A DNA stretch of 64,000 nt from a virus. Taxonomy: Duplodnaviria; Caudoviricetes. The DNA lies in IMG/VR virus record IMGVR_UViG_3300028048_000069, positions 64,001 through 128,000 of that record; one strand, written 5' to 3'. Below are positions 1,461-42,292 of this stretch, one piece after another. Made by a program: the position numbers and the translations under genes. Each line of letters opens with the position of its first letter. The first letter of the stretch is position 1. The notes under the pieces were generated by a model. The model had not been told where the DNA came from. It made no database searches and was given only the letters and a program-made list of their open reading frames with translations.

Positions 1461-2716
1461 GTAAAGTTTTAGATACAGGTAACATAGAAATTGTTACTCA
1501 TAATGGTCTAAATTCCGAATATTTTCCAAACTATGAGAGTGAGTTTAAATTCATATTAGACCACTATCGTCAGTATGGTGTTGTACCAGATAAAGAAACT
1601 TTTCTTTCAAAGTTTCCAGATTTTACTATTGTAAAAGTAAACGAGTCAGATACTTACCTATTAGACCAACTAAACGAAAACTTCTTGTACAATAGGATGG
1701 TTCCTATTCTAACTAAAGTACAAGACTACCTAACTAAAGAAGAAGATAGCAGAAAGGCAGTAGAATATCTTCAGCAAGAACTTCCATTTTTAACAAGTAA
1801 ATTAAGATTAGAAGCACAAGATATTGTTAAGAATGCTGATGTTCGTATTGAAGAACTTGAGAAAAGAAAAGATGGCAAGTATTTTATAACCACAGGATTT
1901 CGTGAGTTAGATAATGCTCTAATGGGTTGGCAACGCGGAGAAGATTTAGTAACAGTAATGGGTCGTACAAATGAGGGTAAGTCGTGGTGTTTATTAAAAT
2001 TTTTAGAAGCAGCATGGTTGGCTGGATACAGAGTAGGTTTATATTCAGGTGAAATGAGTGGAATACAAGTTGGGTTTAGGTTTGATACTATTTACAATAA
2101 TTTTTCAAATACTGTTTTAACTAAAGGTTCTCAAGACATTGAAGCATATAAAGAGTATGTTAAAGGGTTGAAAGAAAAAAATTCATTCTTTGTTATAACC
2201 CCAGAAGATATGGGTGGAAACTGTACAGTTACTAAACTAGAAGCATTTATCCAAAAGTATAAATTGGATATTTTAGGTGTCGACCAGTACAGTTTAATGG
2301 ATGACGAAACCTTTAAACCAGGTCAACCACTTCGTGTAAAATATGATAACATCAGCAAAGGTTTATTTCAGTTAAGTTGTAAATATCATATTCCTGTATT
2401 AGCAGCAGTACAAGCAAACAGAGCATCAGTATCAAAAGATAAAAAGAATAAGGCTGAAGGTCCAAAATTAGAGCATATTTCAGAAGCAGATGCTATTGCT
2501 CATAATAGTTCTCGTGTTATTGCTATGCGCCAAAACGAAGGTAATCTTGAATTTGAAGTGGTTAAAAACAGAATAGGTGGTCGTAATGGAAGATATATTT
2601 ATAGATGGCTGATTGATACAGGTAAGTTTGAATATGTTCCTACTTTAGCAAATAATGACAGTCAACAAGTAGAGCAAATTAAAAAACAGTTTAGAGATAA
2701 AGAGGACATATTTTAA
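1439..2716 (+). CDS. dnaB: Replicative DnaB-like SF4 helicase
   Basis: TGFRELD, Walker A GRTNEGKS, YSGEM, VDQYSLM, AVQANR, KNR motifs. Confidence 0.92.
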   Translation: MVDAQILSKVLDTGNIEIVTHNGLNSEYFPNYESEFKFILDHYRQYGVVPDKETFLSKFPDFTIVKVNESDTYLLDQLNENFLYNRMVPILTKVQDYLTKEEDSRKAVEYLQQELPFLTSKLRLEAQDIVKNADVRIEELEKRKDGKYFITTGFRELDNALMGWQRGEDLVTVMGRTNEGKSWCLLKFLEAAWLAGYRVGLYSGEMSGIQVGFRFDTIYNNFSNTVLTKGSQDIEAYKEYVKGLKEKNSFFVITPEDMGGNCTVTKLEAFIQKYKLDILGVDQYSLMDDETFKPGQPLRVKYDNISKGLFQLSCKYHIPVLAAVQANRASVSKDKKNKAEGPKLEHISEADAIAHNSSRVIAMRQNEGNLEFEVVKNRIGGRNGRYIYRWLIDTGKFEYVPTLANNDSQQVEQIKKQFRDKEDIF

Positions 2717-2723
2717 TGATAAA
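2709..2723 (+). repeat. 15-bp direct repeat TATTTTAATGATAAA, copy 1 (helicase/MTase junction)
   Basis: Identical to 3395..3409. Confidence 0.8.
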
Positions 2724-3402
2724 TTCTATTGTTAAGGGCGATTGTTTAGAAGTTCTAAACAGTATAGAAGATAATAGTATTGATTGTATTTTTACTGATG
2801 TTCCTTACAAGCAAGATTTTCATAATAGGGGAATGAGTAAAGATAGACCTAACCATATGAAAATCAAAGAATATGGTAGCGATAGCGAACTCGATTATAC
2901 AGCATTTTTTAATTTATGTATTTCTAAATTAAAGCATATAAATTTCTTTACTTTTTGTGATAAAGAAACTAAATTTGAATTTATAAAATTGGCTAAAGAA
3001 AGGGATTTTGGGTATAAGGAGTTATGCTTTTGTAAAACAAGTCCCGCGCCATTCTGTAATAATCAATGGCTACCAGATGTAGAGTATGGGATACACATAT
3101 TTAAAGATTTAGAAGTAATGGGTTCATATGAAACAAAGAGGTCATTTTTTGTAATGGTTAATTTTAAAGAGCCAAACATTGACCATCCAACCGCTAAAAA
3201 GGTTTCAGTATGCTGTCAAATTCTTAAAAATATAACGAAGGAAGGTCAGTTAGTGCTCGACCCATTTAGTGGTAGTGGAACAACCGCGATTGCTTGTAGT
3301 AGAATAAAAAGAAATTTTATTTGTATTGAAAAGAATGAAGATTATTATAAAGCAAGTTGTGAAAGATTAAAAACAGAACAATCAAAAAAGAGATTATTTT
3401 AA
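2716..3402 (+). CDS. DNA methyltransferase, N4/N6 beta class
   Basis: GDCLE, catalytic TDVPY, HPTAK, LDPFSGSGTT; ends KKRLF. Confidence 0.9.
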   Translation: MINSIVKGDCLEVLNSIEDNSIDCIFTDVPYKQDFHNRGMSKDRPNHMKIKEYGSDSELDYTAFFNLCISKLKHINFFTFCDKETKFEFIKLAKERDFGYKELCFCKTSPAPFCNNQWLPDVEYGIHIFKDLEVMGSYETKRSFFVMVNFKEPNIDHPTAKKVSVCCQILKNITKEGQLVLDPFSGSGTTAIACSRIKRNFICIEKNEDYYKASCERLKTEQSKKRLF

Positions 3403-3409
3403 TGATAAA
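3395..3409 (+). repeat. 15-bp direct repeat TATTTTAATGATAAA, copy 2 (MTase/primase junction)
   Basis: Identical to 2709..2723. Confidence 0.8.
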
Positions 3410-5309
3410 AGTAAATAATACCTATATAACAGCGAGTGTTGAAGATATAGTGGGTTTATTAAAAACCCATTTATCACTTATGGGCATCAATTTATTAAAT
3501 CAAATTCGGCCTGGAAGAGATAATATACAAGTAACTTGCCCAATACATAATAATGGGCAAGAGAGAAAACCTTCTTGTGGCATAAGAACAACAGAAGAAC
3601 AAGGTAAGGAAGTAGGTTCTGTTCACTGTTTTACTGATGACACAAAGGTAATAACATATGATGGAACAAAAAGGATAAAAGATATAGTTGGAAAAAAAGT
3701 TTTTGTATTAAATGGAAATGGATTTTGGGAACAAACTATTTTTAAGTCTTATGGTATTCAAGAACTTTATAAACTTACTTTAAGAAGAGATGGTCATTAT
3801 AAGATTATATATACAACAAGTGATCATTTATGGAAAGTTAGAAGTAGAAAAAATTTTATACCTACAAAAGAACTAATAAAAAATCAGAGGTTAGAAAAAG
3901 CTGTTCCTAATAATATATCTCTAAATATAATAGATGAAGGTATTATACATGGATTTATATTTGGAGATGGAAGTATAAATAGAGTTTATAAAGACGGTAC
4001 ATTCAAGTATAGGGTTCATTTTTTTACAAATGATAAGATGAATGTTTGTAATAAATTTTTTAAGAATTTTGAAGGAGGCGAAGGATATAAAAATTATCCA
4101 TATCCATACAAATTTGTTTCATCTAGTATTAATTATAAATCTCTTCCTATTACAAATAATTTAGATTATTTATATAGTTTTATTGTTGGGTGGTTTGCTG
4201 CAGATGGTTGTGTTTCACAAAATGGTGTGTGTTCTATTGCAAATATAGATGAAAAAAATATCGATTTTTTGGTAGATACTCTTCCAAAATTAGGTATAGC
4301 ACATTTTGGAAAAAGATTTCAAAAAAGAGAACCTAATGATACTTATATAGATAAGGAATCAATTATATGGAAACTTACATTCGCTGTAAATACATTGCCA
4401 AATAATTTTTTTGTAAGATATTCTGAAAATCCTATTAATAGAGTAAAAAAATATGATAGACTTAAATGGACAGTGCAAAAGGTTGAAAAAACAAATACAA
4501 AACAAGAAGTGTTTTGTTGCGAAACAAAATCACATACATTCACTCTAGAAGATTTTATTTTGACCCATAATTGTTTTACTTGCGGATACACAGCATCATT
4601 ACCTGTATTTATTAGTAATTGTTTTGGTAAAAGAGATGGTGGGAAATATGGTCAAAAATGGCTTTTAAAGCACTTTTCTGGTATAGATGGAGTAAGTGAT
4701 AGAAAACCGATTATAGACCTTTCTAGGGGTAAAATAAGCCAAAATACAGATAAAACCTATATAAGCGAAGAAGAACTAGAATCCTATAGATATATCCATC
4801 CCTATATGTATAAGCGCGGTTTAACAGATGAAATTATTGAAAAATACGATATTGGGTATGATAAGAATACAGATTGTATAACAATGCCTATAAGGGATGA
4901 AAGCGGAAGAACTTTATTCTTTTGTAGACGTTCGGTAAAAAGTAAATTTTTTAGTTATCCAGAAGGGGTTGAAAAACCTATTTATGGCATATATGAGTTG
5001 CCAAAAGATTGTAAGGAATTAGTAGTTTGTGAGAGTGTATTTAATGCTTTAACCTGTGTAAAGTATGGTATTAGTGCCATCGCTTTATTAGGAACTGGAA
5101 ATAAGTATCAGTATGAACAAATAAAGAGATTGCCAGTAAGAAAGATTATTTTAGGATTTGATGGTGATGATGCAGGTGATAGAGCAGCGATTAGATTTGC
5201 TCAAAATGTTACAAACAAGATTATTTGCAAATATGAAATTCCGCGCGGAAAAGATATAAACGATTTAAGTAAAGAAGAATTTTATAATTTAAAAATGGTG
5301 TCCATATGA
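3402..5309 (+). CDS. dnaG: DnaG-type primase interrupted by an intein
   Basis: CHC2 zinc finger CPIH...HCFTC (split), TOPRIM VVCESVFNA and FDGDDAG, GKDIND. Confidence 0.9.
   Translation: MIKVNNTYITASVEDIVGLLKTHLSLMGINLLNQIRPGRDNIQVTCPIHNNGQERKPSCGIRTTEEQGKEVGSVHCFTDDTKVITYDGTKRIKDIVGKKVFVLNGNGFWEQTIFKSYGIQELYKLTLRRDGHYKIIYTTSDHLWKVRSRKNFIPTKELIKNQRLEKAVPNNISLNIIDEGIIHGFIFGDGSINRVYKDGTFKYRVHFFTNDKMNVCNKFFKNFEGGEGYKNYPYPYKFVSSSINYKSLPITNNLDYLYSFIVGWFAADGCVSQNGVCSIANIDEKNIDFLVDTLPKLGIAHFGKRFQKREPNDTYIDKESIIWKLTFAVNTLPNNFFVRYSENPINRVKKYDRLKWTVQKVEKTNTKQEVFCCETKSHTFTLEDFILTHNCFTCGYTASLPVFISNCFGKRDGGKYGQKWLLKHFSGIDGVSDRKPIIDLSRGKISQNTDKTYISEEELESYRYIHPYMYKRGLTDEIIEKYDIGYDKNTDCITMPIRDESGRTLFFCRRSVKSKFFSYPEGVEKPIYGIYELPKDCKELVVCESVFNALTCVKYGISAIALLGTGNKYQYEQIKRLPVRKIILGFDGDDAGDRAAIRFAQNVTNKIICKYEIPRGKDINDLSKEEFYNLKMVSI
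3627..4571 (+). mobile_element. Intein (315 aa) with LAGLIDADG homing endonuclease
   Basis: Starts CFTDDTKV, ends FILTHN before extein Cys; block B TSDHLW; LAGLIDADG-like GFIFGDG and GWFAADG. Confidence 0.92.
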
Positions 5310-6178
5310 TAGATTTATTACAACCAATTATTAAATGGTCTGGGTCTAAAAGAAGTCAAGCATCTAAAATTGTATCTTTATTAAATGATACATATGAAAT
5401 ATATTATGAGCCATTTTGTGGTGGATGCTCAGTATTATTTTATATTTTAAATTATTGTCCAAATAGATTTAGTAAATATATTTGTTCAGATATAAATAGA
5501 GAGTTGATTGATACATTTAATATGATTAAAAATAACCCACAAGAAATTTTTAATAATTATAAAATAATGTGGAAAGAATTGAATAAAGATAATGACTTAG
5601 AACGAAAGAAAAATTATTTTAATAAAATTAGAGAAGAATTTAATAAAACAAAAGATGCCAAATTATTCTTTTTTATTATGCGAACAACAACTAATGGTAT
5701 GCCTAGATATAATTCCAATGGTGAATTTAACAATTCATTTCATGTGACAAGAAAAGGAATAAATCCAAGTAGATTAGAAACAATTTTATATCAATGGAAT
5801 AAATTATTAAATAGATTTAATGTGGAATTTTTACACTGCTCGTATGATTCTATAAAACCATCCAAATATGATTTTATGTATTTAGACCCGCCTTATGTTA
5901 ATACCAGGGGTATGTATTATGGAACCATAGATTATGATAATTTATGGAGATTTTTAAAAAACTGTGATTGCGATTATTTTTTAAGTTTAGATGGAATCGC
6001 AGGTGATGAAATTAATATTGTAGATATTCCTAAAGAATTGTACAATCAACATCTTTTATTGTATAGTGGGAATTCTTCTTTTAGAAGGGTTATAGGAAAA
6101 AATACACATGTTAGTGTTAAAGAGAGTTTATATGTTAAAACTAATAAACCTCATAAAGAACAAATAAAATTATTTTAG
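5306..6178 (+). CDS. Dam-family (D12) DNA adenine methyltransferase
   Basis: KWSGSK, YEPFCGG, SDIN, YLDPPY; ends EQIKLF. Confidence 0.9.
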   Translation: MIDLLQPIIKWSGSKRSQASKIVSLLNDTYEIYYEPFCGGCSVLFYILNYCPNRFSKYICSDINRELIDTFNMIKNNPQEIFNNYKIMWKELNKDNDLERKKNYFNKIREEFNKTKDAKLFFFIMRTTTNGMPRYNSNGEFNNSFHVTRKGINPSRLETILYQWNKLLNRFNVEFLHCSYDSIKPSKYDFMYLDPPYVNTRGMYYGTIDYDNLWRFLKNCDCDYFLSLDGIAGDEINIVDIPKELYNQHLLLYSGNSSFRRVIGKNTHVSVKESLYVKTNKPHKEQIKLF

Positions 6179-6180
6179 TG

Positions 6181-6258
6181 TATGAAATACCGCGTGGTAA
6201 AGATATTAATGATTTAACTAAAGAAGAATTTGATGGGTTAAGAAAGGTTAGAGTATAA
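6181..6258 (+). pseudogene. Orphaned duplicate of the primase 3' end (YEIPRGKDINDLTKEEFDGLRKVRV*)
   Basis: Near-identical to the primase C-terminus encoded from 5232 (YEIPRGKDINDLSKEEF); no start codon; its TAA overlaps the next ATG. Confidence 0.85.
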
Positions 6259-7028
6259 TGTCCGATATAAAATTATACAAAGGTGATTGTTTGGATGTGC
6301 TGAACACACTAGATGCTAATAGTGTTGATTTGGTTGTTACTTCACCACCTTATGATGACCTTCGTGAGTATAATTCTGTTATTGATTGGAAACAATTAGC
6401 AACCGCTTTGTACAGAGTAATAAAAGAAGGCGGAGTTGTGGTGTGGAATGTTAATGATAAAGTTATTGATGGTTCTAAATCATTGACATCTTTTAAGCAA
6501 TGTATTTTATTTAATGAAATTGGTTTTAATGTTAATGATGTTATGATTTGGAAAAAGGCTAATCCAATGCCACAAGTAAAACAGCCTAGGTATAATCAAG
6601 TATTCGAATATATGTTTATATTTTCTAAAGGAAAACCAAAAACATTCAATCCAATTATGGTAGATTGTAAATGTGCAGGTCAAAATTATGCTAGTACTTG
6701 TAAAAAGATTACTACAGGTAAAGAGCGCGAGTATAAAGAGTTTGAAATAAATAGTAAGAAGGTAGCCGATAATATTTGGGAATTTGCTATTTCTCAAAAT
6801 AAAACAGAACACCCTGCTGTTTTTCCATTGGAGTTACCTTTAAAACATATAAAATCTTGGTCGAATAAAAACGAATTAGTATTGGATCCATTTATGGGTA
6901 GCGGTACTACAGGTATTGCTTGTAAGATGCTGTTTAGAAATTTTATAGGAATAGAAATAGATGAAAACTATTTTAAATTAGCGGAGAGAAGAATATCTGA
7001 TACCTATGTTCCTACTCCATTATTTTAA
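6258..7028 (+). CDS. DNA methyltransferase, beta class (SPPY, possibly N4-cytosine)
   Basis: TSPPY, HPAVFP, LDPFMGSGTT; ends PTPLF. Confidence 0.9.
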   Translation: MSDIKLYKGDCLDVLNTLDANSVDLVVTSPPYDDLREYNSVIDWKQLATALYRVIKEGGVVVWNVNDKVIDGSKSLTSFKQCILFNEIGFNVNDVMIWKKANPMPQVKQPRYNQVFEYMFIFSKGKPKTFNPIMVDCKCAGQNYASTCKKITTGKEREYKEFEINSKKVADNIWEFAISQNKTEHPAVFPLELPLKHIKSWSNKNELVLDPFMGSGTTGIACKMLFRNFIGIEIDENYFKLAERRISDTYVPTPLF

Positions 7029-7030
7029 TT

Positions 7031-7411
7031 ATGAAAAAGCAAATAAATAATATTTTTACGGATATACCAAAAACATTACTAAATTTAATTTCTAGTGTAA
7101 TGGTCAATGGTGTAGTATATAAAAATTTAAAAGATTGGTGCGCCAATATAGTAGAAGGGGAAAATATTATTATAATAAATCCACTTAGTAGTACTAACAG
7201 AAAGGTTATTGTAAAAGAAGTAGCACTCCACGATACTCCATATTTTAAGTTTAATGAATTATATAATAACAACAATCCAATACCTATGGTAGAAATGTAT
7301 GGAGTACTTTTGGAAGAAAAAGATAAAACTGTTAAAATGGATTTATGGGATAAAGAACATAAAGTGCATTGGTCTGGATGGCTATTAAGAAGTTGGATTT
7401 TAGAGTGGTAA
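7031..7411 (+). CDS. Hypothetical protein
   Basis: 126-aa ORF tightly packed in the operon. Confidence 0.7.
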   Translation: MKKQINNIFTDIPKTLLNLISSVMVNGVVYKNLKDWCANIVEGENIIIINPLSSTNRKVIVKEVALHDTPYFKFNELYNNNNPIPMVEMYGVLLEEKDKTVKMDLWDKEHKVHWSGWLLRSWILEW

Positions 7412-7412
7412 A

Positions 7413-8132
7413 ATGGATAATATTATTTTATATAATGATGATTGTTTTAATCGGTTATCTGGGTTAAGTAATATAGATTTGATTGTTACTGACCCACCAT
7501 ATTCTTTTAAGGCTAAAAAGATAAAAGAAGGTAGTGGTGGAACAGTTAATAATCTTAAAAAATTTGATGTGAGTTTATTGAAGTTGAACGATAAGGATTT
7601 AATAAATTCATATGATATAGCAAAATTTGGAGATTTAGTTTTTAATTTGCAAAATGAAGTAAATGCTTATTTTTGGTGTAATAAAAATCAAATTCCAGAA
7701 TACCTAGATTTTTATGTAACTAAATATAAGTGTAAATTTGATATTATTTGTTGGCACAAGGTAAATGCATTACCTACATATGCGAATAAATATTTAACCG
7801 ATACCGAGTATTTATTATATTTTCACAATGGTAAGGGTAAATGTTTTCCGCAGAATTATGAAGATGCTAAAACCTATTACATAACTATGATAAACCACAA
7901 GGATAAAAAGAAGTGGGATCACCCTACAATTAAACCTTTAGATATCACAATGAAAGTAATACGAAATAGTAGCAAAGAAGGTGAGTTAGTGTTAGACCCT
8001 TTTATGGGCAGTGGTACTACTGGTTTGGCCTGTAAGATATTGGGAAGAAAGTTTATAGGTATAGAGATAGCAGAAGATTATTTTAAGATGGCTGAAGATA
8101 GAATTTTTGAAAAGAAAGGGGGTTTGTTTTAA
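7413..8132 (+). CDS. DNA methyltransferase, N4/N6 beta class
   Basis: TDPPY, HPTIKP, LDPFMGSGTT; ends KGGLF. Confidence 0.9.
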   Translation: MDNIILYNDDCFNRLSGLSNIDLIVTDPPYSFKAKKIKEGSGGTVNNLKKFDVSLLKLNDKDLINSYDIAKFGDLVFNLQNEVNAYFWCNKNQIPEYLDFYVTKYKCKFDIICWHKVNALPTYANKYLTDTEYLLYFHNGKGKCFPQNYEDAKTYYITMINHKDKKKWDHPTIKPLDITMKVIRNSSKEGELVLDPFMGSGTTGLACKILGRKFIGIEIAEDYFKMAEDRIFEKKGGLF

Positions 8133-8470
8133 TGAAGCCTACACGATACTATAGTTCTAGACAAGAAAAACAGATAGCCAAATCTATTGGTGGAAAGCAA
8201 GTTGCAAATTCAGGTGCTACTTCTTTTCATAAAGGTGATGTTAAAACAGCCGATTGGCTTATAGAGGCCAAAACAGTAACAAAGGTTAAAGATTCCTTTT
8301 CTATTAAGAAGGCTTGGCTTATAAAAAATCAAGAAGAAGCATTCGCTATGAATAGAAGATATGCTGCTCTTGCTTTTAATTTCGGGCCTGATGAAGAAAA
8401 TTATTATGTAATTAGCGAGAAACTGTTTAAAGAATTAGTAAAATATATACAAGAGGACAGGGAGGTTTAA
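8132..8470 (+). CDS. PD-(D/E)XK nuclease, Holliday junction resolvase-like
   Basis: QEK..A, NSGA...KGDV, LIEAKT motif pattern; small size. Confidence 0.7.
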   Translation: MKPTRYYSSRQEKQIAKSIGGKQVANSGATSFHKGDVKTADWLIEAKTVTKVKDSFSIKKAWLIKNQEEAFAMNRRYAALAFNFGPDEENYYVISEKLFKELVKYIQEDREV

Positions 8471-9475
8471 ATGGCAACACTTGCAGTGAAGTATAGACCC
8501 ACCACTTTTGAAGATGTGTGCGGTCAACAGAATATTATTACTATTCTTAATAATCAATTAAGCACAAAATCTTTCAAAAATGCTTACCTATTTTGCGGTC
8601 CATCAGGTTGTGGTAAAACAACAATGGCTCGTATATTTGCTAAAAAATTAAATAATGGTGGCGGTTCAATAATTGAAATAGATGCCGCTAGTAATAATGG
8701 TGTAGATGATGTTAGGCAAATTATAAAAGACGCTCAATTCTTACCATTAGATGGTTCATATAAAATATACATATTAGATGAGTGCCATTTATTTAGTACT
8801 GGTGCTTGGAATGCAATGCTTAAACTTATTGAAGAACCACCTGCTAAAACCATCTTTATTTTTTGTACTACCGACCCACAGAAAATACCTTCAACCATCA
8901 TAGGTCGTGTACAAAGGTATAACTTTACAAAAATTAGTAGTAAGCAAATTATTGATAGATTAACTTATATTTTGAAGTCCGAAAATATAAATACTTTTGA
9001 TGGTTCTTCTTTACAACTTATCGCTAGATTATCAAAGGGCGGTATGAGAGATAGCATAACCACACTTGAGAAATGCCTAGGATTTAGCAAAAACCTTACT
9101 GTAAGCAATATTACACAAGCCTTGGGGGTAGTGGGTTACGATAGTATGTTCTATGTGTTTAAAGCAATTATAGAGCATAAAACAGATGATGTTTTATCGC
9201 AGATAGAAACCCTTTATCTTAATGGGTTGGATATAAAGGTGTTTGTAGTAAGTTTTTTACAATTTGTATTGGACATTTCTAGATACATAGTAACAAAAGA
9301 TTTTTGTGTTAGTTATCTTCCAGATGATTATAAATCAAAGATAGATGGATTATCACTTAATAAAGAGCAACTAGCAAATTTAGTGGATGGGTTGGTTAAA
9401 TTAAATAGTTATATAAAGTATGAATCCAATCCATTTGTATTTGTTCAAGCATTTCTATTAAAGGTATCTATATAA
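8471..9475 (+). CDS. dnaX: Clamp loader ATPase subunit (DnaX gamma-like, no tau extension)
   Basis: KYRP, GQ, GPSGCGKTT, EIDAAS, DECH, LLKLIEEP-like motif, GGMRD. Confidence 0.92.
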   Translation: MATLAVKYRPTTFEDVCGQQNIITILNNQLSTKSFKNAYLFCGPSGCGKTTMARIFAKKLNNGGGSIIEIDAASNNGVDDVRQIIKDAQFLPLDGSYKIYILDECHLFSTGAWNAMLKLIEEPPAKTIFIFCTTDPQKIPSTIIGRVQRYNFTKISSKQIIDRLTYILKSENINTFDGSSLQLIARLSKGGMRDSITTLEKCLGFSKNLTVSNITQALGVVGYDSMFYVFKAIIEHKTDDVLSQIETLYLNGLDIKVFVVSFLQFVLDISRYIVTKDFCVSYLPDDYKSKIDGLSLNKEQLANLVDGLVKLNSYIKYESNPFVFVQAFLLKVSI

Positions 9476-10266
9476 TGATTGGTCAGAAGTTATTTGCTAC
9501 CTATTTAAGCAATTGGACTATACCGCCTCATTTTATTATTTTGAATGGGGAAGTAGGTTCTGGTCGTTCCACAATTATAGAAGAAATTAAGAAGAAATTT
9601 AAGTATAAATCGGTGTTATGCGGAACTTCTACAGAAGAAGTTAGGCAGATAGTAGATATGGCATACACTGTAGAGACACCTGTTTTTTATATATTTTACA
9701 ATGGGGAAAAATTATCATCTAACGCTAAAAATGTGTTGCTTAAAGTAGTTGAAGAACAGCCTAAAAATGCATTTTTTATAATGAGAACAGAGTCTGGTAC
9801 TATAGAAACATTAAAAAATCGTTCATTCTATTATAATATACAGCCATATTCTTCTTCGGAGTTAAAAGAGTATTTTTCTAAACAGAATAAAGAAGATGTT
9901 TATGATAATTATGGCGAAATATGTAAAAATATAGGGCAGATAAAAATATTTTTAGAGATGGATTATGAAGGGTTGATTGATTATTGTGATATGATTGTTA
10001 CAAAGATTAATCGTGCGTCACAAGGTAATGTGTTTAATATAACACGAAAGATTGATTTTGGTGATAATCCTAATGGTTGGGATGTACAACTATTTATAAA
10101 TGCTCTTGAGTGGAAGTTAAAAAATGCTTACAAAACAACCAAAGAAGATAGGTTTTTTCAAGCAATTTTTAGATTAAATTCTTTTAAGTCGCAGATTAAA
10201 ATAAATGGTGTGAATAAATCGGTCGCATTAGATAATTTTTTACTAGGGTTGAGAACATTATTATGA
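9475..10266 (+). CDS. Clamp loader delta' (HolB-like) subunit
   Basis: MIGQ start, degenerate Walker A GEVGSGRS, NVLLKVVEE, TLKNR; adjacent to dnaX. Confidence 0.75.
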   Translation: MIGQKLFATYLSNWTIPPHFIILNGEVGSGRSTIIEEIKKKFKYKSVLCGTSTEEVRQIVDMAYTVETPVFYIFYNGEKLSSNAKNVLLKVVEEQPKNAFFIMRTESGTIETLKNRSFYYNIQPYSSSELKEYFSKQNKEDVYDNYGEICKNIGQIKIFLEMDYEGLIDYCDMIVTKINRASQGNVFNITRKIDFGDNPNGWDVQLFINALEWKLKNAYKTTKEDRFFQAIFRLNSFKSQIKINGVNKSVALDNFLLGLRTLL

Positions 10267-11192
10267 ACTTGGTTGAGTTAAAAACAAGAATGTCTAAAAA
10301 GGATATTCCTAATTTTTTAATTTTTACTGGCCCAGAACTTGGGGTTCTTAACACATATATTGGTAAAATAGGATCCATAATAAATACAGCAATTAAAAGA
10401 AGAGAAACTGTGTCGAGCGCATTGGAATTATGCCGAAGTAAATCTATTTTTAATAAAATAAATTTTGTAGTTGTAACAGATGACAATGATTTTTTAAAAA
10501 ATGAAACTGCTTGGGATAAGGTAATTATGCAGTTAGGAGATAATATTTTATTACTCCACTATCATACATATGATAAACGATTAAAATTTTGGAATAAATT
10601 TGCAGACCAAACTGTCGTTTTTGATTACCTTAAACCAAATGTAATAGCAAAGCATTTGTGCAAAGATTATGGGTTAAGTGAATCTTTCGGAGAATTGATT
10701 GCAGAAGGGTGCGGATGTGATTATACTCGTTGCTTGTTAGAAGTAGATAAGATTAAAAATCTTTCTGATGCTACTCATCAATCTATAGATGAAGTGTGCT
10801 CAAACAATCTAAAAACAGGTATAATTTGTTTTGATAAAGATGTGAATATTAATCCATTTGTTGAAGCATTTTTAAGAAGAGATTTATCATTAGCATATTC
10901 ACTATATGAAGAACTATTATTGCAAGGTGAGCCAGTTTTAAGGATGCTTTCTTTTCTGTATAATGCCTTTAAAAATGTTTTAATAGTGCAGACCGCTACA
11001 AGTACTTATAAACTGCGAGAAACCACAGGCATAACCTATTATGGAGAAATAGAAGGAAAAAAGTTTAAGGGCAATTATAGTGATGTAGAACTTGAAAATA
11101 TACTATACATTTTGATGTGGTTAGAGCAAGGCATAAAGAGTGGCACAATACAGCCAGAATTTGTTGTTGATTTTTTGTTGGTAAATTTGTAA
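10263..11192 (+). CDS. Clamp loader delta (HolA-like) subunit
   Basis: LIFTGPE, SIF clamp-contact-like motif, EVDKI, IKSG near the C-terminus; size and context. Confidence 0.75.
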   Translation: MNLVELKTRMSKKDIPNFLIFTGPELGVLNTYIGKIGSIINTAIKRRETVSSALELCRSKSIFNKINFVVVTDDNDFLKNETAWDKVIMQLGDNILLLHYHTYDKRLKFWNKFADQTVVFDYLKPNVIAKHLCKDYGLSESFGELIAEGCGCDYTRCLLEVDKIKNLSDATHQSIDEVCSNNLKTGIICFDKDVNINPFVEAFLRRDLSLAYSLYEELLLQGEPVLRMLSFLYNAFKNVLIVQTATSTYKLRETTGITYYGEIEGKKFKGNYSDVELENILYILMWLEQGIKSGTIQPEFVVDFLLVNL

Positions 11193-11206
11193 TATAGGAT
11201 TGTGTT

Positions 11207-11374
11207 ATGAAATTCTTAAAACTAATATACAAGAAGTTTTTCGTCGGTAAAGAGAAGAAAACATATACTTGTTGTAGGAGGTGTGGTAAGCAATTAAAAA
11301 GTAAAGAAAGTCGTAAGTTGGGTTTAGGAAAATGTTGTTATAAAAAAGAGTTGTATAAAAATAAATTATTCTAA
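11207..11374 (+). CDS. Small zinc-finger protein (DUF6011-like), 55 aa, absent from the ORF track
   Basis: CRRCGKQLKSKESRKLGLGKCC pattern; ends KNKLF. Confidence 0.7.
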   Translation: MKFLKLIYKKFFVGKEKKTYTCCRRCGKQLKSKESRKLGLGKCCYKKELYKNKLF

Positions 11375-11401
11375 AAACTGTGGTTGTATGGGGAGGGTGA
11401 A

Positions 11402-12253
11402 ATGAAGGTTGACAGTTATTCTTTTAGAGCCTTTTATTCAGGGCACTATGATTCAAAATTGGACTCAAAACCAGGTGAATACTTGGTAATGAACTACCAA
11501 AAAGCAACAAAACTACTAGACGATTCTCTCGTCGATTTATCTCAAAAATTTAAGACACAGGAGAAGTACCTAGCATTTAAGGAAAAATTGGAGAATTTAA
11601 AATCTCAATATTTTTCTGCTTTATGCAATAGGTATATGGGTGTTGTATTTAATTCTGGTCGTCGCATTATAAGTAATTCAATCTCTGACTCGGATATGAT
11701 TAGTTATGGGGAAGAAGTACTGTTACAATGCGCTTTGAAATATAAGTTTGATAAGAAGATTTCTTTTATAACTTATTTTACCAATGCGGTGTTTAATATG
11801 TCTTACACATTAGTAAGAAAGAAACACTTTAGAGATTGGAATATAAATATGGCATCCTTGAACACACTAATGGAAATTGATGACCGAATAAGTGAGTTAT
11901 CTGAAGATAAAAAATTTATTCCAGCCAAAAAGAAAAAGCCATTAGTAATAAAGCCATCAAAAATAAATGAAGAGTTAGATAAGATACTTTTTAACCCAGA
12001 ATTGGCTGAATCTATAAAGGTTAAGTTGGGTATTAAGGATGACTTGTTTTTGCATTATTTAATATTGAAAACAAAGCACAAAAAGTCAACTATTAATTCC
12101 GACGAAACAGAAAAACTATCTTATTTAGAACCCATTTATGAAAATGACTATAACAATTTTAGTAAGATATATATGTATGAGTCAGATATTGACGATTACA
12201 GAGAAAAAATTCAAAAAAATCGTATAAAAGAGGAAATACTATGTCAAGAGTAA
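11402..12253 (+). CDS. Phage sigma70-family-like transcription factor
   Basis: Region-2-like DMISYGEEVLLQCALKYKFDKKISFITY; GGAGG RBS before ATG 11402. Confidence 0.6.
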   Translation: MKVDSYSFRAFYSGHYDSKLDSKPGEYLVMNYQKATKLLDDSLVDLSQKFKTQEKYLAFKEKLENLKSQYFSALCNRYMGVVFNSGRRIISNSISDSDMISYGEEVLLQCALKYKFDKKISFITYFTNAVFNMSYTLVRKKHFRDWNINMASLNTLMEIDDRISELSEDKKFIPAKKKKPLVIKPSKINEELDKILFNPELAESIKVKLGIKDDLFLHYLILKTKHKKSTINSDETEKLSYLEPIYENDYNNFSKIYMYESDIDDYREKIQKNRIKEEILCQE

Positions 12254-12864
12254 CAACAGAACAAGCAAGAAAAATAACAACTTCAAATTCAAATGGCTAT
12301 TTTAGCCTTAAAGATGATGGTGATAAAGCCACTGTTAGATTTATGTACAACAATGTTTCAGAAATTGAAACCTATTCTGTACACGATGTTACCATAAATG
12401 GGTTTAATAAGCATGTAGATTGCTTAAAAGATGCTGAAGGTAATGGAGTATGCCCATTTTGTGAAAAGGGTGTAAAACGAACTGCTAGAACATTTTTTAA
12501 ACTGTACAATGTAGATAATGGCGCGGTTGAAATTTGGGATTGTGGTATTAAACGCGCACCAGGTTTAGAAAATATTTTAAAGATGTCTCGGTCGCCGAAG
12601 TTGGTAAATGATGTTTTTGAAATTGTACGACATGGTAAAGCAAAATCTACCGATACGACCTATGAACTTATTTATAAATCTTCTGATGATGTTACCTTGG
12701 AAGAACTTCCGAACTCACCAGACCTTTATAGTAAATATATTCTAAAGAAATCTCCCGAAGAAATGGAATATTATATTACTCATAATGAGTTCAAACCTAC
12801 AGGTGAACAATCAGCCAAATCTGATGCTACTGTTACCAAAAGAGTAAATAGGAGTGTCTTTTAA
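12241..12864 (+). CDS. Single-stranded DNA-binding protein (phage gp32-like)
   Basis: FSLKDDG..VRF, H...C...CPFC zinc site, R.G....TTY; located just before the polymerase. Confidence 0.7.
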   Translation: MSRVTTEQARKITTSNSNGYFSLKDDGDKATVRFMYNNVSEIETYSVHDVTINGFNKHVDCLKDAEGNGVCPFCEKGVKRTARTFFKLYNVDNGAVEIWDCGIKRAPGLENILKMSRSPKLVNDVFEIVRHGKAKSTDTTYELIYKSSDDVTLEELPNSPDLYSKYILKKSPEEMEYYITHNEFKPTGEQSAKSDATVTKRVNRSVF

Positions 12865-15188
12865 TGGCATTGTTCGCACCTAGGTCTAGTAGGGAACTCG
12901 ATAAGAAGATAATACAGAAAGCACATTCTGTAAAAAGTGTTTTTGTCGGTAGTTCTAAAGGTGCAAAAAGGGGGCTATCTGAAAGGATAGCCTCCGCCGA
13001 AGTTGAAGTAAATAGATATTTTAGTAAGTTTAAAGATGATTTTTTAATTATTCGTACAGAAGAAGAATTAAAAAATTATGTAGATAATATTATAAAAGAT
13101 GGAATTGTAGCCATCGATACAGAAACTGATGGGTTGGATACCTTTAACGGAACATTAGCAGGTATCTGTCTGTATAGTCCTTCAAATAAAGCATCCTATA
13201 TTCCTGTTCACCATGTATCCTATATTACAGGGCAAGAAGTTAATAATCAACTAAAAGAAGATATTATTAAAAAGTACTTTGAAAGGGTAGTTAATGCTAA
13301 TGTAAAAATAATTATGCATAATGCCTCTTTCGATTTAAAAGTATTTGCAAATTTAGTAGGTATTAGATTGCCTTGTTATTGGGATACAATGATTGCTTCT
13401 AATATTTTGAACGAAAATGAACCGCATGGTTTGAAAGCACTTCACGATAAATATTGCGGAGATGGTACAGGTGTATATAGCATTACAAATTTGTTTGAAG
13501 GAATTATATTTACTCACGTTCCGATAAAATTGGGTTATTTATATGCTGCTCGTGATGCTAAAATGACTTATGAGTTATATAAATATCAAAGCCAATTCCT
13601 ATGTGAAAACCCATCAAAAGAACACGAAGATTTGAAGTCTTGTTATGATGTGTTTATGAACATAGAAATGCCATTGGTGCCTGTCATTTTAGATGCAGAA
13701 CTGCGCGGAGTTAGATTAGATTTAGCAACTGCGGATAAATTGAAAGAAGAATATAATGCTAAATTGGCTGTTTGTAAGGAACAATTTACAGCGATAGTTG
13801 AACCGATAAAAGATTTAGTATTACAGTTTATTAGAACACATACTACAATTACATCTAAACCTAAACTTGAATGGCCTATCAATTTTGATTCACCACTGCA
13901 GATAAGTGAATTACTTTTTAATGTGCTAAAGGTAAGTGATAAAAATGGTAAGAGTACAGGTGTTAAAGAACTTAATGCTATTATGGAAAGCACCAAAAAT
14001 GATACAGTTCGAAATTTAATTAAAACCTTACTTGAGTACAGAAAAGTACAAAAACTATTGACCACTTATATTGAGAAATTGCCTAATGAAGTAAATCCTA
14101 AAACAGGTAAAATTCACTGCAACTTCAATCAGTATGGAACAGTAACTGGTCGTATGAGTTCTAGTTCACCGAACTTACAAAATATTCCTTCAAAGAATAA
14201 AGAAATTAGAAAGATGTTTGTAGCAGATGAGGGGTATTGTTTAATCGGTGGAGATTATTCACAGCAAGAACCGCGTATTTTAGCACATATGAGTGGAGAT
14301 GAGCAGTTAATACACGCATACACTACTGGTAAGGATTTATATGCACATGTAGGTTCTTTAGCCTTAAAAGTACCTTATGAAGATTGTTTGGAACATTACC
14401 CAGATGGTAGTGTAAATCAAGAAGGTAAATTAAGAAGAAGTAGAATGAAGGCCATTGTGTTGGCTTTAATGTATGGTAAAGGAACTAAAGCATTGGCAGC
14501 CGATTTGAAAATATCTTTGGAAGATGCCTCATCCCTTATGAAATCCTTTTTTACAGAATTTCCTAAAGTTAATGAGTTTATCAATAAATCACAATCATTC
14601 GCTAAATGTAATGGGTATGTAAAAACATTGTGGGGAAGAAAACGAAGGCTACCAGATATGCTTTTAGACCCTTATGAATTTAGTTATGCTAATGGGGTTA
14701 GTAGAGATTTTGACCCATTAGATGATATTGATAGTGATGAAACCAATGATTTAACTGTCGATCCAGTTTTAGTACAAAAATGGACAGCAAGATTAAATAA
14801 AGCATTTGGTTCTTTTAAGAAACGAGAAGTAATTCAGCAAGCATTAGCAGAAGATAATATTCAAATAAAGGAAAATAGTCTTAAAATTGCTGATGCTGAA
14901 CGACAGACAGTAAATAGTATTATTCAAGGTTCGGCTGGAGATATGGTTAAACGCGCTAGTATTTTGTGTTATAACGATAAACGACTACAAGATATGGATT
15001 GCCATATTTTAATTTGGGTTCACGACGAAATAATTTCTACAGCACCTATCAAATATGCTAGGGAATGTGCAAAAATTATTGATGAAAATATGAAAAAAGC
15101 CGCAGATAAATTAGTAGTTCCTATGAAAACGGACTTTGAAATAACCAAAATTTGGTATGGTGAAGAAATTGATTTTAGTAAGATATAA
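12864..15188 (+). CDS. polA: Family A DNA polymerase (3'-5' exo plus polymerase, no 5'-3' exo)
   Basis: DTET, HNASFD, YAARDA, TGRMSSSSPNLQNIP, DYSQQEPR, motif B RMKAIVLALMYG, VHDE. Confidence 0.95.
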   Translation: MALFAPRSSRELDKKIIQKAHSVKSVFVGSSKGAKRGLSERIASAEVEVNRYFSKFKDDFLIIRTEEELKNYVDNIIKDGIVAIDTETDGLDTFNGTLAGICLYSPSNKASYIPVHHVSYITGQEVNNQLKEDIIKKYFERVVNANVKIIMHNASFDLKVFANLVGIRLPCYWDTMIASNILNENEPHGLKALHDKYCGDGTGVYSITNLFEGIIFTHVPIKLGYLYAARDAKMTYELYKYQSQFLCENPSKEHEDLKSCYDVFMNIEMPLVPVILDAELRGVRLDLATADKLKEEYNAKLAVCKEQFTAIVEPIKDLVLQFIRTHTTITSKPKLEWPINFDSPLQISELLFNVLKVSDKNGKSTGVKELNAIMESTKNDTVRNLIKTLLEYRKVQKLLTTYIEKLPNEVNPKTGKIHCNFNQYGTVTGRMSSSSPNLQNIPSKNKEIRKMFVADEGYCLIGGDYSQQEPRILAHMSGDEQLIHAYTTGKDLYAHVGSLALKVPYEDCLEHYPDGSVNQEGKLRRSRMKAIVLALMYGKGTKALAADLKISLEDASSLMKSFFTEFPKVNEFINKSQSFAKCNGYVKTLWGRKRRLPDMLLDPYEFSYANGVSRDFDPLDDIDSDETNDLTVDPVLVQKWTARLNKAFGSFKKREVIQQALAEDNIQIKENSLKIADAERQTVNSIIQGSAGDMVKRASILCYNDKRLQDMDCHILIWVHDEIISTAPIKYARECAKIIDENMKKAADKLVVPMKTDFEITKIWYGEEIDFSKI

Positions 15189-15205
15189 ATACAGAGGTAC
15201 AAACA

Positions 15206-16279
15206 ATGAACATTAAACTAAAAACTGAAGAACTAAAAGATGCAATTAATAAAATTGTAAAAGGTTTGGGAAATAATAAAATGTTGCCCATTACCGAAAT
15301 GATAGGTATAAATGTAGATAAATCTACCTTGTCATTAGTATCTACTGATGGTACAAATAAAGTACAAGTAGTAATACCTATCGAAGGGGATAACGAACCT
15401 ACATCTTTTGTGGTAAATGGTAAGACATTCTCTCAATTGGTTTTAAAAACAACAACAGAGTTTATCAATTTATCCGTAGAAGATGGAAAATTGGTTGTAA
15501 AGGGTAATGGTAGTTATTCTTTTTCATTTCCCACTGATGAAGATGGTGAATTTATTGTAATTCCAAATGTAGAAGTAGATAAGGATACTAAAGTTGAATT
15601 ATCAGCCGAAGATTTGAAAAATTCTTACAATATCAATAAATCATCCGTATCAGTTACTATGGAAACCCCTGCATATACAGGTTTCTATTATGACGATAAT
15701 GGATCTGTAGCCACAAATTCATTGAAAATTAGTTATGTAAATAAGAAATTATTTAGTAATCCTATCTTATTGAATGCAAAACTTGCAAGTTTGTTTTCTA
15801 TATTACCAGAGGAAAAGGTATATGTTTATCAAGGAAATTCAGAAATTGCTTTTGAATCTGGTAATGTAACAATCCAAGGATTTAAAATGGATGATGTGAG
15901 CGAGTTCCCTATCAATGATATTATTCCATTTTTAACCGCCGATTTACCACATAAGGTTAGATTGAATAAAAAGGCATTATTAAACCTTTTAGAGCGCATC
16001 GCAGTATTTGTAACTCCCTTTGATAAAAACTCAATTAAAATTGATTTTACGAAGAATGGTGTGCGTGTATGGACATTGGATGGTATCAATAATGAAATTA
16101 TTCCATATACAGATTCTGAAAATGTAGAAGAAACTTCAATCAAAGTGGATGTAACGAACTTTAAGGATTTAGTAGGTTCTAACCCAGAAGAAGAATTAGT
16201 AATTATGTATGGGCATCCAGCGGCCATTAAAATGACCTTTGGAAATGTTTCTCAAGTATTAGCACTAGTAGGTGAATAA
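15206..16279 (+). CDS. dnaN: Sliding clamp (DNA Pol III beta-like)
   Basis: 357 aa; LVSTDG, VATNS, FP, LLNLLERI pattern typical of beta-clamp; co-located with the clamp loader. Confidence 0.8.
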   Translation: MNIKLKTEELKDAINKIVKGLGNNKMLPITEMIGINVDKSTLSLVSTDGTNKVQVVIPIEGDNEPTSFVVNGKTFSQLVLKTTTEFINLSVEDGKLVVKGNGSYSFSFPTDEDGEFIVIPNVEVDKDTKVELSAEDLKNSYNINKSSVSVTMETPAYTGFYYDDNGSVATNSLKISYVNKKLFSNPILLNAKLASLFSILPEEKVYVYQGNSEIAFESGNVTIQGFKMDDVSEFPINDIIPFLTADLPHKVRLNKKALLNLLERIAVFVTPFDKNSIKIDFTKNGVRVWTLDGINNEIIPYTDSENVEETSIKVDVTNFKDLVGSNPEEELVIMYGHPAAIKMTFGNVSQVLALVGE

Positions 16280-17031
16280 TGCGCTTATTTAGTGAACCAG
16301 ACCAAAGTATTGCTACTAATTTTTTGAACGATTTAGAGAAATCTATTTATATAGATTCTAAACCTTCAAAAGATACGAAGAGCACATATTATAAACCTTC
16401 TTCACTAAATTGTTTGCGTATGATGTACTACTATCGAACAAATACAAAGATAGATGGGGCAGTTAGACCTGCCTCATCTATCGGTATACTTCATAGTGGG
16501 GAAGATAGACATTTAAGAATACAAAAAGCCATTACAAATATGAAAAATAATGGCTTTGATTGTGAATGGGTTGATGTAGAAACATACATAAAAGAAAATA
16601 AATTAACAAATTTAGAAGTAATCTCCAAAAAAGAGTACGAAACTACAGTACATAATAAAGAACTTGATTTGTTATTTTTATGTGATGGCATAGTTAAAAT
16701 AAATGGAAAATATTTTATTATAGAAATTAAAACTGAAAACTCAAGTTCTTTTTATAATCGACTTGCAGTAGCGGAAGAACATAAACATCAAGCGGCCTGT
16801 TACTCAATATCTTTTAACATAAACTATGTTATTTTTATTTATGAAAATAGGGATTTATGTTTAAAGAAATCGTTTTTATTTTATGTTCCTGTTTCGTTGA
16901 AAAACGAAGTGGTAGGTATGATAGAAAGATGCAATGAGTTTGTTGAGAAGAAAGAATTGCCTACTAAAATTGTGTGTAAGTTTTGTACTTACTGCGACTA
17001 TAAGAAAAAATGTTCAAAAAATGAGGCTTAA
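16279..17031 (+). CDS. Cas4/RecB-like PD-(D/E)XK exonuclease
   Basis: PSS..C, G...H, CDG, IEIKT, HQAACY, C-terminal CxxCxYxxxC. Confidence 0.8.
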   Translation: MRLFSEPDQSIATNFLNDLEKSIYIDSKPSKDTKSTYYKPSSLNCLRMMYYYRTNTKIDGAVRPASSIGILHSGEDRHLRIQKAITNMKNNGFDCEWVDVETYIKENKLTNLEVISKKEYETTVHNKELDLLFLCDGIVKINGKYFIIEIKTENSSSFYNRLAVAEEHKHQAACYSISFNINYVIFIYENRDLCLKKSFLFYVPVSLKNEVVGMIERCNEFVEKKELPTKIVCKFCTYCDYKKKCSKNEA

Positions 17032-42042: not shown

Positions 42043-42061
42043 AATGTGGGAGAATAAATTT

Positions 42062-42292
42062 ATGAAATTTAAAAAATTAGTTAAATCCGAAGAAGAAATT
42101 AAAGATACTAATAAAAGAAAAACTAAAATCGAAGAGTGGTTAGAGTCAATAGATGATGAATTGTATTATATTAAAGGTATGATTAAATCTAATGTAGAAG
42201 CGCATCCTAATCGTGGAGATATTAAAAGTGCAATAACTAAAAAATTGCAAGATGCTTATTCTTCACTGCTTGATATAGAGGACCTTTTTTAA
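42062..42292 (+). CDS. Putative internal head protein (leader MKFKKLVKS)
   Basis: Shared leader; GGAG RBS. Confidence 0.6.
   Translation: MKFKKLVKSEEEIKDTNKRKTKIEEWLESIDDELYYIKGMIKSNVEAHPNRGDIKSAITKKLQDAYSSLLDIEDLF

Follow-up and report, generated by a model that had tools for sequence, protein, structure and literature searches.

Introduction

Clients of the bacterial beta sliding clamp include DNA polymerase II, which ends in QLGLF, DNA polymerase IV, the clamp-loader subunit delta, with an SLF motif, and Hda, with an N-terminal QLSLPL. In phages T4 and RB69, the clients of the gp45 clamp, namely the gp43 polymerase, gp33 and gp55, have C-terminal hydrophobic tails, and the RB69 polymerase ends in SLFDMFDF. 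Terminal aromatic residues also have other roles in replisomes: the acidic C-terminal tails of the T7 helicase-primase gp4 and of the T7 single-stranded DNA-binding protein (SSB) gp2.5 end in Phe and bind the polymerase, and bacterial SSB ends in DDDIPF. A review describes the beta-clamp motif as a QL(S/D)LF pentapeptide, typically C-terminal, and describes a PCNA-binding motif in DNMT1 that targets this maintenance methylase to replicated DNA (PMC9690074). The MuC protein of phage Mu has a functional beta-clamp-binding motif, the mutation of which abolishes its function (bioRxiv 10.1101/2025.01.04.631326). Here, we describe several DNA methyltransferases (MTases) that end in Leu-Phe (LF) and are encoded in the replication module of an uncultured tailed phage (Caudoviricetes; IMG/VR record IMGVR_UViG_3300028048_000069). 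The genome has 136,046 bp, direct terminal repeats and about 30% GC, and the window, that is, the whole stretch of 64,000 nucleotides that we analysed, comprises its bases 64001-128000. We propose that the LF tails may dock these enzymes on a sliding clamp so that DNA is modified as it is replicated.

The locus shares features with each of these systems. As in bacterial beta-clamp clients, the candidate docking peptide is a terminal, predicted-disordered L-F peptide, Gln is enriched at position -5 across the family, the delta subunit has S-[LI]-F and the polymerase has a terminal motif. It differs from them in that the phage carriers are DNA-modifying enzymes, Gln is replaced by basic residues in most tails of this phage, and the clamp is phage-encoded (phrog_947). 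The likeness to DNMT1-PCNA lies in a DNA methyltransferase that would be tethered to a sliding clamp so that new DNA becomes methylated. However, PCNA is a trimer, its motif is an internal Qxx[IL]xxFF and its purpose is epigenetic maintenance, whereas the phage system is likely anti-restriction, with many MTases on one hub. In the gp45 system, too, a clamp encoded by the phage is bound by hydrophobic peptides at the extreme ends of several proteins, and some tails of Dam homologues (QNESLFDM) are similar to those of its clients, but gp45 is trimeric and PCNA-like and serves a polymerase and transcription factors, while the clamp considered here is of the DnaN type and would be a dimer, and the motif of the polymerase is at its N terminus. 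MuC is a precedent for a non-replication phage protein that uses a clamp-binding motif, although it is a transcription activator that acts on the host clamp and not a DNA modification enzyme.

Results and discussion

Six of 11 MTases end in LF

The preliminary description of this stretch, made from the sequence alone, had noted LF at the ends of four MTases and related terminal motifs on other replication proteins, and had proposed that the phage's own clamp recruits the MTases. The C- and N-terminal sequences that it quoted, for the four MTases, the gene at 11207, the helicase, the SSB, the polymerase (PolA), the exonuclease and the delta subunit, were all confirmed in sequence and position. 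Its count of six MTases was too low, as Pfam and PHROG assignments identify 11 MTase-like genes in the genome. Six of the 11 have LF tails, four of them in the window's replication module (three of N6_N4 type and one D12 Dam) and two upstream of the window. Among 180 plus-strand open reading frames (ORFs) in the whole genome, eight end in LF, and only two of these, a DUF6011 protein and an 82-amino acid ORF, are not DNA MTases. The LF-ending genes are as follows (window coordinates unless marked as genome):

2716..3402, plus strand: N6_N4-type DNA MTase; PF01555 over residues 151-214 of 228; 14-residue tail ending EQSKKRLF
5306..6178, plus strand: D12-class Dam MTase (DPPY); PF02086; added tail at residues 279-290 (nt 6140-6175) ending TNKPHKEQIKLF
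6258..7028, plus strand: N6_N4 DNA MTase (SPPY, FMGSG); PF01555 over residues 23-243 of 256; 13-residue tail ending YVPTPLF
7413..8132, plus strand: N6_N4 DNA MTase (DPPY, FMGSG); PF01555 over residues 21-228 of 239; 11-residue tail ending EKKGGLF
genome 30670-31419: N6_N4 MTase outside the window (PPY and FMGSG motifs), ending RKLF
genome 56897-57703: MTase outside the window (PPY and FMGSG motifs), ending KRLF
11207..11374, plus strand: DUF6011 zinc-ribbon-like protein of 55 amino acids; PF19474; ends KNKLF
42044-42292: 82-amino acid ORF of no known family, ending IEDLF; no other LF-ending ORF lies outside both the MTase set and the replication module

The excess of LF tails is real and not due to chance. 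Amino acid composition predicts 0.68 LF ends among the 180 ORFs (Poisson 6e-7), and a conservative null based on end-position frequencies predicts 2.1, compared to eight observed (permutation P=2e-4). Within this phage the tails are specific to MTases, occurring on 6/11 MTases versus 2/169 other ORFs (Fisher p=2.8e-7). SPPY or DPPY together with FMGSG is found in the MTases at 6258, 7413, 30670 and 56897, and DPPY in Dam, and the PF01555 or PF02086 matches of the MTases are above the cut-offs. The MTase at 2716 has the variant motif IV DVPY and the motif I FSGSG, and Pfam matches only its C-terminal S-adenosylmethionine (SAM)-binding part; its activity is therefore less certain. Deviation from the usual (D/N/S)PPY catalytic motif is seen both in this enzyme (D-V-P-Y) and in the MTase at 33718 (D-I-P-Y). 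A search with the MT-A70 profile was uninformative.

The five tail-less MTases are four consecutive genes at genome 60398-64747, among them a C5 MTase and a protein ending SPLFKHKFN, and the gene at window 33718. Two of the five lie wholly or partly in the window, and the earlier statement that both lack the tail is borne out:

1..747 (genome 63935-64747), plus strand: 3' part of an MTase-like gene, the last of the four consecutive genes; NPPF motif; no Pfam match, MTase-like by PHROG only (phrog_5172/phrog_799); ends NIVGIK
33718..34455, plus strand: N6_N4 MTase without a tail (DIPY, TMGSG); PF01555; ends RIEKCSN

The same description had used location inside the operon to divide tagged from untagged MTases. 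The four untagged MTases at 60398-64747 directly precede and adjoin the replisome operon, and operon membership therefore does not separate the two groups.

The tails are predicted to be added, disordered extensions

Comparison with homologues and structure prediction indicate that the LF tails are add-on extensions, predicted to be disordered and absent from most close homologues. The C termini of the tagged MTases extend 11-14 residues beyond the end of the Pfam domain. Of the 120 homologues nearest to Dam in sequence (53-86% identity), 112 end at the ESLYIK strand plus 0-5 residues, and the remaining 8/120 have an L[FW] tail on unrelated linkers (TNKPHKEQIKLF, SDNIKIIRTLF, RKHNADKLAINKLF and GFDGGEKGQSRLF). 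In an AlphaFold2 model of Dam (mean predicted local distance difference test (pLDDT) score 83), the last strand spans residues 271-278 and the tail is modelled as coil, with pLDDT <50 at residues 284-290. Judged by Pfam domain ends and predicted pLDDT, the MTase tails and the N terminus of PolA are both terminal segments predicted to be disordered, as is typical of clamp-binding peptides.

The N6_N4 enzymes are similar in this respect. Cultured-phage homologues of the MTase at 6258 align only up to residue ~246-250, and its 120 closest homologues comprise 75 without a tail and 45 with one of several tails. Among these 120, 21 end in L[FW], four have L[FW] followed by 1-3 residues, and nine have Q-x-x-[IL]-[FW]-D, for example QLNIFD, QLDIFD and QATIFD. 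A third recurrent tail class in N6_N4 MTases, found in 11/120 of these homologues, ends in DLD, as [LF]SDLD or W[ED]DLD-COOH. For the MTase at 7413, LF is the commonest C terminus (20 of the 150 best 50%-identity cluster representatives), and many of these LF ends are QxxLF, such as QQSLF, QQKLF, QLTLF and QLKLF.

The tail recurs on unrelated DNA-modifying enzymes

Sequence comparison across phages indicates that the LF tail recurs convergently on unrelated DNA-modifying enzymes, in a register that matches QxxLF. LF is the most frequent C-terminal dipeptide of the ORFs in 19 IMG/VR loci that surround related DnaN genes (24/547, compared to about two expected). Its carriers there are 7-deazaguanine transglycosylases of the DpdA type (phrog_887; 9/9), glycosyltransferases (phrog_2456; 4/4), a SAM MTase and N6_N4 MTases. 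In 80 further DpdA loci, 74/85 DpdA proteins end in LF and two in LW, and for 63 of those that end in LF a DnaN gene was present in the locus retrieved. Similarly, in 70 loci around Dam homologues, mostly from large phages, LF is the most frequent end (43/1454) and LW ranks third (29/1454). In large phages, parallel x-L-W-COOH tails (NLW, SLW, GLW, RLW) are present on Dam and on MTases encoded nearby. When 66 LF-ending ORFs were classified by Pfam, there were 17 N6_N4 and 7 D12 MTases, together with a ligase N-terminal domain, Mom, GyrB, DnaB and PAPS reductase; nearly all are DNA-acting proteins.

Cultured phages have the same tails on DpdA. The protein ends in MELF in CAjan, QDLFDE in 9g, QELF in Pseudomonas phage JG012, EQRLF in Rhizobium phage RHph_Y55, QGKLF in Bacillus phage Flasso, QVSLF in Dinoroseobacter phage R5C, TQGLF in Vibrio phage CHI, QQGLFV in BcepGomr and KQSLW in Edwardsiella phage ZHS. 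In CAjan, 9g, JG012, RHph_Y55 and Flasso, but not in R5C, the next gene after dpdA, or the next but for one or two short ORFs, is an annotated clamp gene, and CHI and BcepGomr have a phrog_947 clamp gene shortly after dpdA. The clamps of the cultured phages fall, with DnaN of the window, into a single PHROG, phrog_947. Among 7-deazaguanine phages, Queuovirinae included, dpdA is at most two genes upstream of the phrog_947 clamp gene and the polymerase, and DpdA has a terminal tail of Q-x-L-F type. CAjan and 9g are cultured, genetically tractable E. coli phages in which the activities and target motifs of DpdA have already been characterised. The DpdA literature that we examined makes no mention of a clamp.

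One could suppose that the tails are functionless by-products, either of nucleotide constraint at gene junctions (a TTT-TAA-TG overlap, or an AT-rich spacer after a Shine-Dalgarno sequence) or of inheritance from an ancestral MTase. Four F-ending operon genes do end in TTTTAATG with a Shine-Dalgarno-like stretch just upstream, and a single Pfam family covers five of the six tagged MTases. However, two of the tails are found outside this junction context: Dam has a TAG stop with the next gene 80 nt away, and the MTase at 6258 has neither a Shine-Dalgarno sequence nor an overlap. In the complete set of fetched loci, each of the six Leu codons, either Phe codon (TTT 117, TTC 42) and each of the three stops is found among 159 distinct ORFs that end in LF; a stop+TG overlap is present in only 15 of the 159 and absent from 144, in loci of 23-49% GC. 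This diversity of codons and stops implies that selection acts on the amino acids, and it contradicts the junction artefact, which the preliminary description had named as grounds for abandoning its idea. The tail is also found on unrelated folds (D12, N6_N4, DpdA, glycosyltransferase and Mom), and most close MTase homologues are without it. We consider either form of by-product extremely improbable.

The register of the tails matches QxxLF

Pooling the distinct LF tails (161), Gln is enriched 6.9-fold at position -5, where it is found in 34 tails, compared to nine at -4 and six at -6. A Gln in this place gives Q-x-x-L-F, the same spacing as in the bacterial beta-clamp pentapeptide QL(S/D)LF. 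Positions -3 to -5 are enriched in Lys and Arg, and this basic variant dominates in the DnaN-linked lineage. Among the tails of this phage, Q-I-K-L-F of Dam is a full match to the Q-x-x-[LM]-F or QL[SD]LF pattern, and the other five tagged MTases keep x-L-F only (KKRLF, KRLF, RKLF, GGLF and TPLF). The canonical variants QLNIF, QLDIF and QLKLF are found on close homologues of the phage's MTases.

These positional preferences bear on a different role for such tails, as tags for degradation or turnover (of ClpXP or Tsp type) that limit the lifetime of DNA-modifying enzymes. Non-polar C-terminal residues are typical degrons, and the tails are exposed, predicted to be disordered and end in two hydrophobic residues. 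A degron, however, would leave unexplained the presence of Gln at exactly -5, the internal QLxIFD variants in which acidic residues follow the motif, the N-terminal LF of PolA, and the restriction of the tail to DNA-acting enzymes together with its linkage to clamp genes. A role in turnover is therefore, in our view, quite improbable.

The clamp, the polymerase and the clamp loader

Clamp docking presupposes a clamp in the same system and obligate clamp partners with a motif of the same kind. The window encodes such a clamp, and PolA and delta have motifs of this kind:

15206..16279, plus strand: phage beta sliding clamp (DnaN); PF00712, PF02767, phrog_947
12864..15188, plus strand: family-A replicative DNA polymerase (PolA); PF00476, PF01612; N-terminal MALFAPRS
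8471..11192, plus strand: clamp loader, with gamma/tau-like (8471-9475), delta' (9475-10266) and delta (10263-11192) subunits; Pfam DNA_pol3_delta2, gamma3 and delta_C

The product of 15206-16279 is homologous over its full length to three-domain beta clamps, as judged by Pfam (PF00712, 54 bits; PF02767, 26 bits, just under the cut-off of 27), phrog_947 (3e-34, residues 1-354) and beta clamps in the PDB (3t0p, E 4e-13, residues 8-341; 4tr6, 2.5e-11; 7evp, residues 1-336). In an alignment of 41 members of this phage DnaN family, the most conserved strand is the nearly invariant T170-N-S-L-K-I-S176, which aligns with T-D-S-H-R-L-A of B. subtilis beta; in E. coli beta, the strand in this position lines the peptide-binding cleft. 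Close relatives of the phage, with DnaN proteins 46-73% identical, are ENA/Logan contigs of up to 167 kb. An IMG/VR search with the single DnaN protein found no related loci, and one with the family alignment found only relatives of 26-36% identity. A profile alignment of the DnaN family against the CAjan clamp alone gave no significant match, and their kinship was established instead through their common membership of phrog_947.

The motifs attributed earlier to PolA and delta are conserved. In PolA, MALFAPRS is the tip of a 35-residue N-terminal extension (nt 12864-12968) that is predicted to be disordered (pLDDT <50 at residues 1-35). Orthologues from the 19 IMG/VR DnaN loci start with MALF, MAGLF, MGRLF, MPLF, MGLF, MAQSTLF or MALSF, and of 54 further distinct orthologues 27 start with M..LF and 13 with MALSF, most others having LL or LI; L3 is at least 90% conserved in a 27-sequence alignment. 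In delta, K-S-I-F occupies residues 60-63 (nt 10440-10451), and S-[LIM]-[FL] is kept at this position in five orthologues. E. coli delta touches the clamp through SLF at the corresponding place. The N-terminal MIGQKLF of delta' was considered as a further motif and rejected, its orthologues keeping only GQ, the conserved GQ of clamp-loader subunits.

Other terminal motifs in the replication module

Pfam and PHROG assignments define a single plus-strand replication module at window 777-17031. Its 5' part encodes, in order, an AAA+ loader-like protein, DnaB, the MTase at 2716, DnaG with an intein, Dam at 5306 and the MTases at 6258 and 7413. Its 3' part encodes a Holliday-junction resolvase, the three clamp-loader subunits, DUF6011, SSB, the family-A polymerase, DnaN and a Cas4-like nuclease. 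The features of the module that are not listed above are:

777..1460, plus strand: AAA+ helicase-loader-like protein; weak Bac_DnaA ATPase match below the cut-off; ends THKF
1439..2716, plus strand: DnaB-type replicative helicase; PF03796; acidic C-terminal tail KEDIF
3402..5309, plus strand: DnaG-type primase with an intein and a LAGLIDADG domain; Toprim_2, DNAG_N, LAGLIDADG_3, Intein_splicing; no LF tail
12241..12864, plus strand: phage SSB; phrog_14578; ends NRSVF
16279..17031, plus strand: Cas4-like PD-(D/E)xK exonuclease; phrog_1706/1990; N-terminal MRLF

Not all of the terminal motifs that had been grouped with the MTase tails belong with them. The ends of the helicase (EDIF) and the SSB (RSVF), read earlier as clamp motifs, form a separate class that is conserved in orthologues as an acidic or Arg-rich stretch followed by F or Y. 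Helicase orthologues end in TDVF, EDVF, KDVF, TELF, VVF or EEEEY, and SSB orthologues in RDKF, RRAF, GERF, EDVF, ADVF, DDIY or GDIY, with some non-aromatic ends. An acidic run with a terminal aromatic residue is the T7-type arrangement, which the helicase fits; the SSB orthologue ends are Arg-rich or acidic, with F or Y. By analogy, the helicase and SSB tails resemble those of T7 gp4 and gp2.5 or the C-terminal tail of bacterial SSB: the replisome is PolA-based, and its helicase and its SSB have a conserved terminal aromatic residue. Unlike the peptides proposed here for the MTases, such tails are not clamp motifs. The N-terminal MRLF of the exonuclease is not conserved in orthologues, the terminal F of the protein at 777..1460 is not kept in the orthologues of relatives, and LF is absent from the single orthologue found for DUF6011. 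Primase orthologues end in LEEIF, LPIIF or EEFYF, and the intein-bearing primase of the window ends in KMVSI.

The relatives-conserved terminal Phe of the helicase and SSB, in the same operon as the MTases, is one reason to consider that the LF tails might dock on a hub other than the clamp, such as PolA, SSB, the helicase or an unknown phage protein, in the manner of T7. Another is the occurrence of LF- or LW-tailed MTases in large phages with no detectable clamp. However, the tails of the helicase and SSB form their own class, being acidic or rich in Arg and ending in V/I-F or Y, whereas the tails of MTases, DpdA and glycosyltransferases show Gln at -5 and canonical QLxIF variants. In addition, the N-terminal LF of PolA itself fits a shared third-party hub better than it fits PolA as the receptor, and in five of the cultured phages examined the clamp gene comes shortly after dpdA. 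Docking on such an alternative hub appears unlikely, though it is the least improbable of the alternatives that we considered.

Tails and phage-encoded clamps do not always occur together

Several observations weigh against clamp docking. In 49 large Dam-bearing viral contigs, phrog_947 was found in 1/15 of those with an L[FW]-tailed Dam, compared to 5/34 of those with an untailed one, and the tail shows no association with a phage clamp in this set. A trend in the expected direction is present in cultured DpdA phages, in which the tail occurs in 9/10 with a phrog_947 clamp and in 0/2 clamp-negative actinophages, a correlation among only 12 genomes, which are too few and phylogenetically non-independent. 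Cellulophaga phage phi3ST:2 (KC821610.1) has a clamp (phrog_947, 2e-81) near a 7-deazaguanine cluster and a DpdA without an LF tail. Near-complete phage genomes of 363-673 kb with LF- or LW-tailed MTases or Dam had no match to phrog_947, PF00712, PF02767, PCNA_N or TIGR00663. Within the phage studied here, Gln at -5 is found on the Dam tail only among the six tagged MTases, and the other tails are basic (KKRLF, GGLF, TPLF), a putative variant of the clamp motif. Moreover, five of its 11 MTases have no tail, so the tail is not required for methylation as such.

The sensitivity of the clamp models differs. PF00712 and PF02767 miss annotated Queuovirinae clamps, and the Pfam negatives on the Dam contigs are weak for this reason. 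A search with PF02916 (T4 gp45) was uninformative, as it gave no match anywhere, controls included. Tandem arrays of MTase-sized genes ending in KLF, SLF and VLF were seen in two viral contigs, with five genes in one (L022:9992-14185) and three in the other (L048:16801-19351), and viral contigs of 100-390 kb with such tandem LF-tailed arrays (L022, L048) had no match to the clamp models. The claim that the tails depend on the phage's own DnaN is stronger than these comparisons allow: LF- or LW-tailed MTase arrays occur in large phages without a detectable clamp and no association exists in the Dam set, and DnaN of this phage is therefore a presumed receptor. In phages with tails but no detectable clamp, the peptides may bind the host clamp, as the universal QxxLF motif would allow, or an undetected clamp of the phage, or a different partner.

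Two observations concern the clamp-bearing and clamp-less phages with untailed DpdA. The DpdA of phi3ST:2 is short (240 amino acids) and is followed by a ParB-like nuclease gene. A ParB-like gene is also found by the DpdA genes of clamp-less actinophages, just downstream in Mufasa8 and two genes upstream in Hilltopfarm.

A proposal for replication-coupled modification

We regard beta-clamp-type docking for replication-coupled modification as the best explanation of the LF tails, and as probably correct. It is preferred on the basis of the add-on tails with predicted disorder, their convergence, Gln at -5, the LF of PolA and the S-[LI]-F of delta. These comparative findings, together with the linkage of DpdA to the clamp, support the core of the preliminary description well, while its parts concerning the phage's own DnaN, the helicase and SSB, and the exonuclease do not hold in the form first given. 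From the comparisons we infer physical binding, which clamp is bound and an effect on the timing of methylation.

Under clamp docking, the [K/R/Q]-x-x-L-F peptides on the four window MTases and the two upstream MTases would be short linear beta-clamp docking motifs. The flexible extension of 11-14 residues after the catalytic domain would allow an MTase to place its Leu-Phe in the hydrophobic cleft of a clamp that has stayed behind on freshly synthesised duplex, namely phage DnaN (15206-16279) and possibly the host beta clamp as well. On a clamp dimer, PolA, through its N-terminal MALF, could ride together with one modifying enzyme, or MTases could take over leftover clamps. Many types of site would thereby be methylated while the DNA is being made or shortly afterwards, before they are exposed in unmodified form to host restriction enzymes.

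The motif, the hub and the logic, which is that of DNMT1-PCNA, are known. In the literature that we searched, which was incomplete, no bacterial or phage DNA-modifying enzymes (MTases, DpdA, glycosyltransferases or Mom) were described as clamp clients, and phage MTases, DpdA and glycosyltransferases were thus found undescribed as a client class. Whether the same holds for phages in general is a more speculative matter. On the evidence of the terminal motifs, we put at roughly even chances a general rule by which unrelated modifiers (N6/N4 MTases, Dam, DpdA, glycosyltransferases and Mom) would dock on the phage or host clamp through a terminal Q/K/R-x-x-L-[F/W]. Under such a rule, anti-restriction modification would be the work of a "tool-belt" of modifiers acting at the replication fork, and the arrangement would extend to CAjan and 9g.

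Fast modification of phage DNA is usually ascribed to enzyme abundance or to pre-replicative nucleotide pools. If our proposal is correct, the clamp tag would provide prokaryotic viruses with a physical means of coupling modification to replication, a functional counterpart of DNMT1-PCNA in eukaryotes. It would explain why MTase arrays and dpdA lie inside replication modules, and it would add a functional class of clamp clients. A terminal xLF extension would serve as a simple sequence rule by which DNA-acting enzymes could be predicted among the orphan enzymes of phages. In addition, such phages could be made sensitive to restriction by inhibitors of the clamp cleft or by decoys that bind the clamp.

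Neighbouring genes

Two further features of the genome lie upstream of the window. LAGLIDADG inteins also split an SNF2-family helicase (genome 57703-60387), which is flanked by MTase genes. Just upstream of the tagged MTase at 56897, genome 54314-56452 encodes F420-0:gamma-glutamyl-ligase-like and IMPDH/GMP-reductase-like proteins, which may reflect nucleotide or cofactor metabolism tied to DNA modification.

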